A stretch of DNA of 43,671 nt from a virus (lineage: Duplodnaviria; Heunggongvirae; Uroviricota; Caudoviricetes): the IMG/VR virus record IMGVR_UViG_642791630_000021. One strand, 5' to 3'. Shown here piece after piece: positions 9,001 to 12,000 of this stretch. The stretch's first letter is position 1. Every line of letters starts with the position of its first letter. Position numbers: made by a program.

Positions 9001-12000
9001 ATGAATTTTTCGAAACACAGAGCCGCAATGTAACCGACTGGATGCCGCTACCAGAACCGCCGCAGGAGGTGCGCCAATGATCTGGCCTGAAGCCTTTGCA
9101 ATTACAGGCGTTGCTATAGCTATTGATTTTTTAGTATATGTTATTTGTCGGTGGGGGTAAAAACGTTCGCCGGGATTCACACCAAAGGAGGGAATATGTC
9201 GGATGATATTTCACTGGCAATGGAAGGTGCGCTGGCTGTTATTGCTGTTGTGGGCGTTTACTGCCTGGTTGTGTTTTTGATGGATCGACTAGGGAACTGA
9301 ATTCATTACGATATGGGAATTCCCATATCGGGTAAAAACGGTTTGCGGTAAAGCGAGAGTTAAGTAGAATTGCTGCGGGTGCTTGAGGCTGTCTGCCTCG
9401 GGCATGCCACCGTAAGGTAGACAGAGAAAAGCCCCAGTTAACATTACGCGTCCTGCAAGACGCCTAACATTAATCTGAGGCCAATTTCATGCTAGACACA
9501 TGTAGGTTAGCCTCTTACGCGCCGAAAGGCAAGGAGAAGCAGGCTATGAAGCAGCAAAAGGCGATGTTAATCGCCCTGATCGTCATCTGTATCACCGTCA
9601 TAGTGACGGCACTGGTAACGAGGAAAGACCTCTGCGAGGTACGAATCCGAACCGGCCAGACGGAGGTCGCTGTCTTCACAGCTTACGAACCTGAGGAGTA
9701 AGAGACCCGGCGAGGGAGAAATCCCTCGCCACCTCTGATGAATCAGGCATCCTCAACGCACCCGCACTTAACCCGCTTCGGCGGGTTTTGTTTTTTCCTG
9801 GCATTCTGGTTTACAATTCGCACGCCAGCCTGAACAACTGGCACCTGCTGCGCCAGCAGAGACAACCGATGGCGCACGATACCAAATTATACAATTCTGA
9901 TGATTCTGCCGTCTTTGCCAGCAGGCGCGGACGGTGTTTTCACGCATTCAAATCTGACTGGTACCAGCATCCCCCATGCACTGAAGAACAGGCCGAATGG
10001 CTCATTCAGTGTTACCGCAGGCGCGGATGCGAGGTTAAAAAAGCCCTTAGCCTCGACTACCGTCACTGGATAATCTCCGTCAGGCTCCCTTACTCCGAAC
10101 GGCCACCGCGTCCGTCCCGCACATTCCAGCAACGGATCTGGAGGTAATGTGCGGGTATTACTTCGACCTGTTCTGGTACCGGAACTCGGTCTGGTTATCG
10201 TTAAGCCAGGCCGTGAATCAATGTCAGCATTCCATAACGGCAGAATACTGGTGGAGCCGGAACCAAAAAGCATGCGAGCTCTGCCGTCCGGGGTTGTACC
10301 TGCCGTTCACCAGCCGCTGGCGGAAGATAAATCACTACTGCCATTTTTCAGCGATGAGCGGGTGATCCGTGCTGCGGGTGGCGCTGGTGCACTGTCTGAC
10401 TGGTTATTACGTCACGTGAAATCCTGCCAGTGGCTACACGGTGATTATCATCATAGCGAAACCGTCATTCACCGTTACGGTACCGGCGCGATGGTGTTGT
10501 GCTGGCACTGCGACAACCAGCTGCGGGAGCAGACATCTGATTCACTGGATCAACTTGCTCAACAGAATCTGGCCGCCTGGATGATTGACATCATCCGTCA
10601 CGCAATGAATGGCGCACAGGAGCGTGAATTATCTCTGGCTGAATTATCCTGGTGGGCGGTCCGCAATCAGGTGGCGGACGCGCTACCGGAAGCGGTATTA
10701 CGTCGTTCGCTGGGGTTGCGTGCGGAAAAAATCCGCTCCGTATACCGTGAAAGCGACATCATACCGGGAGAACAGACCGCCACCAGCATACTGAAGCAGC
10801 GCACAAAAAATATTGCGCTACCGTCTCACACCCACCAGCAACAGAACCCACCACAGGAAAAGACGGTGGTCAGCATTGCCGTTGATCCGGAGTCTCCGGA
10901 ATCCTTCAGGAAACGACCTAAACGTCGCCGCTGGGTAAATGAGAAATACACACGCTGGGTAAAGACACAGCCGTGTGCGTGTTGTGGTAAGCCAGCGGAC
11001 GATCCTCATCATCTGATTGGTCATGGTCAGGGCGGAATGGGAACAAAATCCCACGATATTTTCACGCTACCGCTGTGTCGGGAGCATCACAACGAGCTTC
11101 ATGCGGATCCGCTGGCGTTCGAAGAAAAGCATGGTTCCCAGGTTGATTTAATTTTTCGTTTTCTTGATCACGCCTTTGCAACCGGCGTGCTCGGGTAAAA
11201 GAGGTTACTGATGCGTATAGAGTTTGTTTTGCTTTACCCGCCGACGGTGAACACCTACTGGCGACGTCGTGGCAGCACATATTTTGTATCAAAAGCCGGT
11301 GAGCGTTATCGCCGGGCTGTGGCGCTTATTGTTCGCCAGCAGCGGCTGAAATTAAGCCTGTCCGGAAGGCTGGCGATAAAGATTATTGCCGAGCCACCGG
11401 ATAAGCGCCGCCGTGACCTGGACAATATTCTGAAAGCGCCGCTGGGGTGTGGGCAGGCCGCTGTATAAGGATCTCATCGGTCGTACAAAAGCCGCGCTGG
11501 CAAAGAACCCGAAAAATGTGCTGCTTGCCGTGGTGTGGATGCAGGGGGAATTTGACTTTGACGGAACGCCAGCAAATCACACAGCCCGTTTTACAGAAGT
11601 AGTGGAACAATATCGTACGGACCTTGCAGATATGGTGGGACAGTGCGCTGGTGGTTCTGCTGACGGTGTTCCCTGGATATGTGGAGACACAACTTATTTC
11701 TGGAAGCAGAAGAGCGAATCCACTTACCAGACGGTGTACGGCAGTTACAAAAACAAAACGGAAAAGAATATTCACTTTGTGCCGTTCATGACCGATGAGA
11801 ACGGAGCAAATGTCCCGACGAACAAACCGGAAGAAGACCCGGATATTCCGGCATCAGGATATTACGGTGCGGCCTCCCGGACGTCGGCAAACTGGACGTC
11901 AGCAGACCGTGCGAGCCATTTCAGCTCATGGGCACGCAGGGGGATTATTTCTGACCGTCTTGCCTCAGCGATTCTTCTCCATGCAGGACGGACGGCTGAA

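Follow-up and report, generated by a model that had tools for sequence, protein, structure and literature searches.

The hok/mok/sok family of type I modules is a textbook paradigm. Its representative on plasmid R1, parB, is plasmid-borne and has been demonstrated to cause post-segregational killing. A prophage relative, hokW-sokW of Sp5 (Sakai; 933W-type Stx2 phages), has been characterised experimentally, with toxicity, the effect of a promoter-less mutant and a partial dependence on RNase III and Hfq all demonstrated (Takada et al. 2021; PMC8621323). A third relative, hokD (relF) of the Qin prophage of E. coli K-12, is the source of the name that PGAP gives to the gene considered here.

We analysed a stretch of 43,671 nucleotides from a virus of the Caudoviricetes (IMG/VR record IMGVR_UViG_642791630_000021), hereafter the window. 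Its positions 9343–9796 very probably hold a complete hok/mok/sok module of the prophage hokW/hokD clade that, judged from sequence and modelled folds, is probably functional and would operate as R1 parB and Sp5 hokW-sokW do. The host element is an Sp6-type lambdoid prophage of E. coli O157:H7 that carries nleL and espN, the genes of the T3SS effectors NleL and EspN. The locus sequence is 100% identical in >300 E. coli genomes, many of them O157, and the chromosome record of strain TR01 (NZ_CP033605.1) contains 8 hok/sok places. Loci of this type are not new, and here the gene is annotated already and a sister copy has been studied experimentally. The gene is hokD in PGAP and 'MokW-like host killing' in PHROG 251, and phage records carry a 'MokW protein' annotation; sok and mok lack annotation in the RefSeq record, and the present analysis supplies their predicted positions. 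The name hokD also masks a contrast, since the window locus is complete and K-12 hokD is a stump.

The predicted hok mRNA and its alternative folds

The 51-aa ORF at 9546–9701 (plus strand), preceded by the Shine–Dalgarno (SD) sequence AAGGAG at 9531–9536, had been called a Hok/Gef toxin in the initial annotation, and profile searches bore this out. It matched Pfam PF01848 (HOK_GEF) with E = 9.7e-24 and 83 bits (cut-off 22), over the full 42-position model, and PHROG 251 at 2.8e-33; the invariant family residues are kept in the Hok alignment. The in-frame upstream reading frame proposed to be mok-like was also recovered: from the ATG at 9489 a 70-aa ORF runs to the hok stop (9489–9701, plus strand), and this start aligns exactly with the annotated start of K-12 mokC. 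The mok SD, GAGG at 9477–9480, lies 8 nt before the ATG and is invariant among 52 phage leaders.

The hok promoter was predicted purely by homology at 9343–9370 on the plus strand, with a −35-like TTGCGG (9343–9348), a 16-nt spacer and a −10 TAGAAT (9365–9370). The −10 aligns with TATAAT of K-12 hokC and TAGGAT of hokB and is nearly invariant among the 52 phage leaders (0.14 bit per column), whereas the −35 region is not conserved (0.98 bit per column). In the generic promoter scan described below, this predicted promoter falls under the threshold. Transcription is predicted to start at 9377, the first position of the match to Rfam RF01794 and the first base of the conserved GGGUGCUUGAGG, which we take to be the position of the R1 hok mRNA 5′ end. 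It is predicted to stop at an intrinsic terminator at 9770–9796 (a 7-bp stem with 5 G–C pairs, followed by TTTTGTTTTTT), giving a full-length mok-hok mRNA of 420 nt (9377–9796). The leader, from the predicted start to the hok AUG at 9546, is thus 169 nt rather than the ~240 nt first estimated. The interval 9300–9376 holds the stop codon of a small upstream ORF (9298–9300), a palindrome and the hok promoter. Positions 9377–9551 matched RF01794 over all 157 model positions with 114.1 bits (gathering score 59) and E = 2.2e-25; the same model scored 118 for K-12 hokC, 110 for hokB, 113.5 for Sp5 and 87 for R1-type loci.

The small ORF just upstream of the locus (34 aa, 9196–9300) had no match in the Pfam and PHROG searches. 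Downstream, a 92-aa ORF at 9869–10147 matched only PHROG 1212, a family of unknown function, and is not Rem-like.

Folding of the full-length mRNA gave a minimum free energy of −174.7 kcal/mol (z = −7.7), with none of 100 shuffled sequences as good, and the fold is closed by a helix between its two ends. The fold-back pairing that had been suggested between segments at about 9386 and 9748 is therefore real, with a small correction of its coordinates: the tac (translational activator) box GGGUGCUUGAGG at 9377–9388, invariant in the 52 distinct phage leaders, pairs with the fbi (fold-back inhibitory) box CCUCAACGCACCC at 9751–9763 through 12 bp and one bulged C (−21.5 kcal/mol). Taken in the window sequence alone this duplex is modestly unusual, being equalled by 9 of 200 shuffled 3′ UTRs. 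It rises above chance because the same helix recurs 45–57 nt past the hok stop in all but a few of 48 homologous loci, and because compensatory double changes are found at three of its positions (U–A to C–G exchanges at two, G–C to A–U at one) among 20 distinct tac/fbi combinations. These pair types were tabulated position by position rather than by a formal covariation test, since the position of the bulge shifts between subfamilies.

The partner of tac changes with the fold: it is fbi in the full-length mRNA, ucb in the 3′-truncated mRNA and 9395–9405 in nascent RNA. The first 36 nt fold with −21.2 kcal/mol (z = −3.6), placing tac and the adjacent downstream segment in a metastable hairpin (9377–9408) that agrees with the description for R1 (PMC9841398). 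The ucb, or anti-SD, box AAGCCCC (9429–9435; 0.02 bit per column in the 52 phage leaders) pairs through GCCCC with the mok SD GAGG in the full-length fold. In the truncated fold ucb pairs with tac instead, and GAGG pairs with the dcb box GCCUC (9510–9514), which lies inside the invariant GCCTCTTAC and is itself invariant across all subfamilies. Both folds, and the Rfam consensus structure, contain a hairpin at 9485–9506 that holds the mok start and has the loop CUAGACA; the 5′ tail predicted for Sok is complementary to this loop and to the 5′ arm. A further hairpin in the 3′ UTR, GGCGAGGGA-GAAA-UCCCUCGCC (9709–9730), has a 9-bp stem in full-length and truncated folds alike and, by analogy with the role of the 3′ hairpin in R1 (PMC9841398), is likely to be the 3′ end protector of the processed mRNA. 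Between them, the three folds (full-length, truncated and nascent) recover the pairings described for R1, namely tac/fbi, tac/ucb, SD/ucb and SD/dcb, as well as its metastable structure (PMC9841398). The tac/ucb switch, which would free the mok SD upon 3′ truncation, and the metastable 5′ hairpin are thermodynamic predictions.

The predicted antisense Sok and its promoter

A minus-strand Sok-like RNA around 9440–9540 had been considered plausible, and the comparison with annotated loci strengthens that view. The predicted Sok is ~77 nt long and runs on the minus strand from 9497 to ~9421, both ends being inferred; when the annotated SokC and SokB of K-12 are projected onto the window, both fall exactly on 9421–9497. 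It would comprise a 16-nt single-stranded 5′ tail, a long hairpin and a U-rich tail, folds with −33.9 kcal/mol (z = −5.4) and is identical to SokW of Sp5 at 68 of 77 nt. On the sense strand, 9468–9497 reads CATTAATCTGAGGCCAATTTCATGCTAGAC. The plus-strand match to the Rfam 'sok' family was rejected as evidence on Sok, as that model hits the strand opposite to annotated SokC and SokB and so describes the hok leader. A family that reports the hok-sense strand in this way can mislead strand assignment.

A search for a minus-strand promoter and terminator gave a divided answer. By homology, a sok promoter is predicted inside mok at 9504–9532 (minus strand; −35 TTGCCT at 9532–9527, 17-nt spacer, −10 TAACCT at 9509–9504), where R1 has its sok promoter TTGCGC-17-TATCCT, and the predicted RNA, complementary to the region of the mok SD and start, ends in a terminator-like hairpin. 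In contrast, a generic sigma-70 scan of both strands over 9200–9900 with a threshold of at least 4/6 per hexamer found no promoter. The scan missed the sok promoter because TAACCT has only 3/6 matches to consensus (TTGCCT has 4/6), and we did not accept its result as evidence of promoter absence, given that the threshold excludes a hexamer that is required in Sp5. There, mutagenic primers that changed TAACCT(A) to GAGCCG(G) made a 'promoter-less' sokW that unmasks HokW toxicity, and sokW was detected on northern blots (PMC8621323). The window and Sp5 sok promoters have identical −10 and −35 hexamers and differ by one substitution in the spacer, and one end of the Sp5 northern probe YO-592 falls on the base equivalent to window 9497. 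From this likeness we infer that the window copy of Sok is probably expressed.

Both sok hexamers are strongly conserved in the 52 phage leaders (0.00 bit per column for the −35 and 0.09 for the −10). In the −10, position 2 is A and position 6 is T in all R1-, hokB- and window-type loci, whereas the hokC/PPompW group shows these bases only with a 1-nt register shift, which was applied by eye. Conservation of the hexamers cannot be credited to promoter function alone, since they overlap sequence that specifies dcb-adjacent RNA structure and the hok SD.

Across the 52 distinct phage leaders there is almost no variation in the promoter hexamers, ucb, the SDs or the Sok hairpin. The Sok 5′ tail region (9481–9497) is different: apart from the apical loop and the bases immediately upstream of where Sok begins, it is the only hypervariable element of the transcribed leader. 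The leaders contain 24 tail types, and co-resident copies of one genome usually differ, in a comparison that drew on multi-copy genomes other than O157 TR01. Pairing energies were −22 to −26 kcal/mol for cognate tails, compared to −3 to −16 kcal/mol for non-cognate types. We make no claim of positive selection, since the variability of the tail (0.79 bit per column) is no higher than that of untranscribed upstream DNA (1.0–1.3 bit per column). Tentatively, the 16–17-nt tail and its target loop (9481–9497) might form a specificity cassette. If so, the 2–11 hok/sok copies of an E. coli genome would form 'immunity types' that are orthogonal to one another, and each prophage, the Sp6-type element included, would be individually addictive or triggered, with no protection by a neighbour's Sok.

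Proposed mechanism and role in the prophage

These features suggest the following scheme. A weak promoter would give rise to the 420-nt hok mRNA, whose nascent 5′ end could form a local hairpin. In the completed transcript its first 12 nt (tac) would pair with fbi, 50 nt past the hok stop, and in this closed form ucb would cover the mok SD. Once the 3′ end is removed, tac would re-pair with ucb, and the mok SD and start would lie in a hairpin complementary to the Sok 5′ tail. The minus-strand promoter, with the hexamers of the tested sokW promoter, would drive the ~77-nt Sok, consisting of the tail and a terminator hairpin. By extension from R1 and Sp5, the full-length hok mRNA would be stable and untranslated, and slow 3′ exonucleolytic trimming would activate it. 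Abundant, unstable Sok would then bind the activated mRNA, block translation of mok and hence of hok, and lead to decay by RNase III. Were sok transcription to stop because the element is lost or the prophage is induced, ribosomes would translate the stored hok mRNA and the 51-aa Hok peptide would depolarise the inner membrane.

What gives such a module its value in this prophage is the least certain step of our reading, and element stabilisation is the most likely answer. The surrounding prophage shows signs of decay (a portal frameshift, a truncated RusA fused to another ORF and a truncated exonuclease), and the retention of its NleL and EspN cargo in spite of that decay would be simply explained by an addiction-type module that has stayed intact. 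It is less likely that the module is functional but serves faster lysis and phage release on induction, as in Sp5, or superinfection exclusion, rather than prophage stabilisation. With hokW-sokW, Sp5 releases twice as many phages after mitomycin C treatment, SokW vanishes on induction, and a passage of the same paper cites R1 hok/sok as lowering the plating of T4 (PMC8621323). The window locus also lies in the early-right/nin-like region in the same orientation as the replication and lysis genes, from which we reason that, on induction, read-through transcription could run into that of sok. Against this, the frameshifted portal and the truncated, fused RusA make productive induction doubtful, and the phage-release role of Sp5 may not apply to a copy in a partly decayed prophage.

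The in-frame arrangement of mok raises a second question, whether the main product is a 70-aa Mok-Hok fusion rather than the 51-aa Hok, so that the upstream frame would encode an alternative toxin isoform and not only a coupling device. The common frame and stop, the 'MokW protein' annotation of phage records and the in-frame mok of 23 of the 48 family loci agree with this possibility. We nevertheless consider it unlikely. In the remaining 25 loci mok is out of frame or has only 19 codons, and there too the position of its SD and start is conserved; the leader is at its most variable where the N-terminal codons of Mok lie; hok has a strong SD of its own, AAGGAG; and R1 depends on the translation of mok, not on its product (PMC9841398).

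Very improbable, finally, is that the locus is a silent relic with an intact hok ORF, with no Sok made or no hok mRNA activated, a fate suggested for a number of chromosomal hok copies: the empty generic scan, the decay of the surrounding prophage, the existence of truly degenerate copies with nearly identical Hok and a passage of a preprint in which chromosomal hokA, hokB and hokC are given as earlier found unable to mediate post-segregational killing (bioRxiv 10.1101/2025.08.07.668861) would fit, whereas the regulatory boxes of the window are all intact, its promoter hexamers equal those of a functionally tested locus and it has none of the lesions of K-12 hokD or of the decayed locus L009. 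Moreover, a cell that makes hok mRNA from an intact hok but has a dead sok should not survive, so hundreds of genomes would hardly retain a locus that had lost sok alone.

Comparison with known loci

Degenerate copies exist among loci whose Hok is 98% identical to that of the window. K-12 Hok of hokD differs by one residue (I16 in the window, L16 in K-12), the two loci are 84–100% identical in hok SD, CDS, 3′ UTR, fbi and terminator, and their neighbourhoods are similar, with a DUF968/ydfU-like gene downstream. In hokD, however, relBE replaces everything upstream of ~9531, leaving no tac, ucb, mok or sok. Two further loci, L010 and L015, also have their leader replaced by relBE and, like hokD, align with the window only from ~9531 onward, while the leader of L009 has decayed, with mutations in tac, ucb and −35. 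The initial annotation had allowed for a degenerate copy of this type with no antisense promoter. In contrast to these four loci, the window leader is intact throughout, and, unlike hokD and L009, the window locus has no IS, frameshift or truncation.

Among the other K-12 copies, HokC is 84% identical to the window Hok and mokC is in frame, as in the window, whereas mok of hokB is out of frame. The SokC and SokB hairpins lack the ~18–21-nt insertion of the window Sok, and the K-12 sokC promoter is TTGACC-17-CACTCT. An IS186 directly follows the hokC stop, and this 3′ flank aligns poorly with the fbi region of the window.

The R1 Hok is only 39% identical to that of the window, yet tac, the metastable hairpin, ucb, the mok SD, the Sok target hairpin, dcb, the hok SD, the 3′ hairpin and fbi are found at equivalent positions, and RF01794 matches both leaders. 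The sok promoters share their place and 17-nt spacer and differ in the −10 (TATCCT in R1). R1 further differs in its tac (GGCGCUUGAGG) and in a shorter Sok hairpin, and true R1-type loci have mok in the +1 frame rather than in frame with hok.

Sp5 hokW-sokW belongs to the same clade and has the same architecture, and both copies reside in lambdoid prophages of O157:H7, albeit different ones, that of the window being Sp6-type with nleL and espN. The HokW protein is 90% identical to the window Hok and the transcription unit 87% identical in DNA. The tac, ucb and fbi boxes, the SDs, the in-frame mok and the sok −35 and −10 are identical, and the two share the same 21-nt-extended Sok hairpin. The Hok C-termini differ (TAYEPEE and VDYESEK in the window and Sp5, respectively). 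Immediately behind fbi the Sp5 sequence diverges from that of the window, which has its intrinsic terminator there. The first 16 nt of Sok contain six differences, and with them the target loop differs between the two loci.

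The hok toxin gene and its leader

The initial annotation of a hok-family locus is supported for window 9343-9796, with refinements to the leader, the antisense Sok RNA and the sok promoter. The 51-residue ORF (9546-9701) is a Hok/Gef toxin, as proposed, by Pfam (9.7e-24) and PHROG 251 (‘MokW-like host killing’). Its product differs by one residue from HokD of K-12 and is 90% identical to HokW of prophage Sp5. The proposed mok-like frame is also present: it starts at ATG 9489, which aligns with the annotated K-12 mokC start and follows a Shine-Dalgarno (SD) sequence (GAGG, 9477-9480), and runs for 70 codons in frame into hok. 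An in-frame mok-hok arrangement was found in 23 of the 48 family loci examined, the rest having a +1 frame or a 19-codon frame.

The Tyr47 codon UAC (9684-9687, in CUUACGAA) lies within UACG, the type of motif in which TadA edits A to I, changing Tyr to Cys. Such editing has been reported for hokB (Tyr29), and a preprint extends it to hokC, hokD and hokE (bioRxiv 10.1101/2025.08.07.668861). Among the family loci, the UACG motif was present wherever Cys was not hard-coded at this position, and vice versa. At a second UACG (9640-9643) editing would be silent.

The leader is 169 nt long, not ~240 nt as first estimated. The Rfam model RF01794 matched 9377-9551 over its full length (114 bits, E = 2.2e-25). 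This family, named ‘sok antitoxin’, matches hokC and hokB (comparison loci L002 and L003) on their sense strands, whereas SokC and SokB are annotated on the other strand. What it models is the hok mRNA between its 5′ end and the hok AUG, rather than the Sok RNA. The plus-strand match in the window is evidence for a hok leader, not for the Sok strand.

The 5′ and 3′ segments previously noted as complementary are the ends of one longer helix, in which the tac box GGGUGCUUGAGG (9377-9388) and the fbi box CCUCAACGCACCC (9751-9763) form 12 bp with one bulge (−21.5 kcal/mol). This helix was part of the minimum free energy structure when the predicted 420-nt transcript was folded (−174.7 kcal/mol, z = −7.7). 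For the window sequence alone, shuffling the 3′ UTR gave a duplex as good as tac/fbi in 9 of 200 trials. In 48 loci sampled from Escherichia, Shigella, Klebsiella, Enterobacter, Citrobacter and others, the best 5′-3′ duplex lay 45-57 nt past the hok stop in nearly all, and the 20 distinct tac/fbi combinations included compensatory changes in which both partners of a pair were exchanged (U-A/C-G at two positions, G-C/A-U at one).

In the model for the hok/mok/sok locus of plasmid R1, the nascent RNA forms a metastable 5′ hairpin, and the full-length RNA is closed, with tac paired to fbi and the mok SD to the anti-SD of the ucb box. Slow 3′ trimming follows; the truncated RNA is open, with tac paired to ucb and the mok SD to the dcb box, and Sok binding is followed by RNase III decay (PMC9841398). 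Each structural state was reproduced in silico by the window, as thermodynamic predictions. The first 36 nt of the transcript would form a hairpin (−21.2 kcal/mol) sequestering tac. GCCCC (9431-9435) is predicted to pair with the mok SD GAGG in the full-length fold; when 9746-9796 was omitted, tac GGG.GCUU paired with AAGCCCC, and GAGGC with GCCUC (9510-9514). Ahead of fbi, where R1 has a 3′-end-protecting stem, the window has a 9-bp GNRA-capped hairpin (9709-9730).

Directly upstream of the hok promoter, a strongly hydrophobic 34-residue ORF (9196-9300, plus strand, MSDDISLAMEGALAVIAVVGVYCLVVFLMDRLGN), annotated as hypothetical, encodes a second small membrane-type peptide beside the toxin; it had no match in Pfam or PHROG. 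Between this ORF and the hok −35 lies a perfect 22-bp palindrome (9309-9330, CGATATGGGAATTCCCATATCG), also present in L005, a PPompW-type locus. With no U-tract after it on either strand, it is not a typical terminator, and may be a protein-binding site.

The predicted sok gene and its variable tail

The minus-strand Sok-like RNA proposed earlier can now be placed by projection, as annotated K-12 SokC and SokB both fall on 9497 to about 9421. The predicted 77-nt RNA (−33.9 kcal/mol, z = −5.4) would begin with a free 5′ tail of 16 nt, fold into a long hairpin with imperfect pairing, and end in CUUUUCUCUGU. Upstream of the predicted Sok, TTGCCT (9532-9527) and TAACCT (9509-9504), separated by 17 nt, form a putative promoter equivalent position for position to TTGCGC-17-TATCCT of R1. 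A2 and T6 of the −10 are always kept across the family, given a 1-nt register shift, applied by eye, in the hokC/PPompW group; where the −10 of a group is poorer, its −35 (TTGACC) is better. A generic promoter scan found no promoter at the locus, which probably reflects its threshold and not the absence of a promoter.

We compared 52 distinct phage and prophage leaders belonging to the window’s clade. The tac and ucb boxes, both SDs, the Sok hairpin body and both sok hexamers were near-invariant (0.00-0.09 bit per column), while 14 of 17 columns over the Sok 5′ tail and mok start varied (0.79 bit). The segment holding the Sok tail, target loop and mok start (9481-9503) is thus a hypervariable island, seen also in loci L004, L007-L019 and L086-L165. 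The tails fell into 24 types, and copies that share a genome usually carry different ones; CP182556, for example, has three. Cognate tail/target duplexes were predicted at −22 to −26 kcal/mol and non-cognate ones at −3 to −16 kcal/mol, that is, 7-20 kcal/mol weaker. Tail diversity may insulate paralogues from each other. We offer such orthogonality as a hypothesis because the tail is no more variable than untranscribed upstream DNA and the Sok body is shared; a cross-interaction review did not address paralogue orthogonality.

Prophage setting and degenerate relatives

A genome search found many E. coli O157:H7 chromosomes 100% identical to the window over 9300-9820, and of 5426 complete E. 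coli genomes 4737 carried locus-related sequence, at a median of 2 and a maximum of 11 places per genome. Near-identical E. coli or R1-type loci also occurred on short contigs (L016, L026, L031, L036-L038, L053, L070) of assemblies labelled Veillonella, Acinetobacter, Xanthomonas, Ferruginibacter, Streptomyces, Oscillibacter, Dysgonomonas and Vagococcus; these most likely reflect contamination or mis-binning, not true host range.

In strain TR01 the entire window is a lambdoid prophage, ordered as integrase, racR-type immunity, replication, nin-like region, lysis, head/tail, and the type III effector genes nleL and espN. A DUF551 gene and a DUF968 gene flank the hok locus, which has the orientation of the early-right genes. 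Decay (a frameshifted portal; truncated RusA, abutting a DUF6645 fragment, and exonuclease) and cargo (nleL, espN, fragments of gogB and nleB, an IS2-family element) occupy 1419-1820, 11211-12741, 22254-24838 and 34875-43444. We take NleL to be EspX7. Sakai prophage Sp6 carries EspX7 and EspN (PMC2323221), and by effector content the window prophage is Sp6-type. Prophage stabilisation, help in lysis and phage exclusion are candidate roles of the locus.

A second antisense-RNA-controlled system, a P22 immI-like module, lies amid the tail genes (32125-33780), with an Arc-family gene, a short Arc-family ORF, sar antisense RNA (32900-32834, minus strand; RF00262, 66.7 bits) and the ant antirepressor (32902-33780).

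Degenerate hok copies, raised initially as the refuting case, exist in nature and are detectable by comparison; the window is free of such lesions. Loci encoding 98-100%-identical ‘HokD’ occur in three states: complete (window, L013), decayed (L009, with tac, ucb and the sok −35 mutated) and relBE-replaced (L010, L015 and K-12 hokD, the Qin prophage copy, L166, 1645119-1645872). In the last three, relBE stands in place of tac, ucb, mok and sok, so that their alignment to the window begins only at about 9531. PGAP gives the name hokD both to the window’s complete locus and to the K-12 stump.

Relation to the tested Sp5 hokW-sokW locus

Takada et al. used primers YO-421/422 (plus strand TAGGTTA to CCGGCTC) to silence sokW, which unmasked HokW toxicity, partially rescued by sokW in trans; northern blots showed sokW RNA (PMC8621323). 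All their oligonucleotides match L004 exactly, and L004 therefore represents Sp5. On the minus strand, the primer change reads TAACCT(A) to GAGCCG(G). Position 9497 of the window corresponds to the base at which their sokW probe ends.

The Sp5/933W-type hokW (L004, about 830-900) diverges from the window (9764-9796) directly after fbi. An intrinsic terminator hairpin present at that point in the window, PPompW and mEp460 types is missing from the Sp5/933W type, whose full-length RNA must therefore have its 3′ end set in another way. Window Sok and SokW differ at nine positions, six of them within the first 16 nt. Over the fragment that complements in trans, 137 of 155 positions are identical, and the sok promoters share both hexamers, with one spacer change (at 9520). 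From this sister locus, 87% identical overall, we infer that the window copy would be expressed and toxic.
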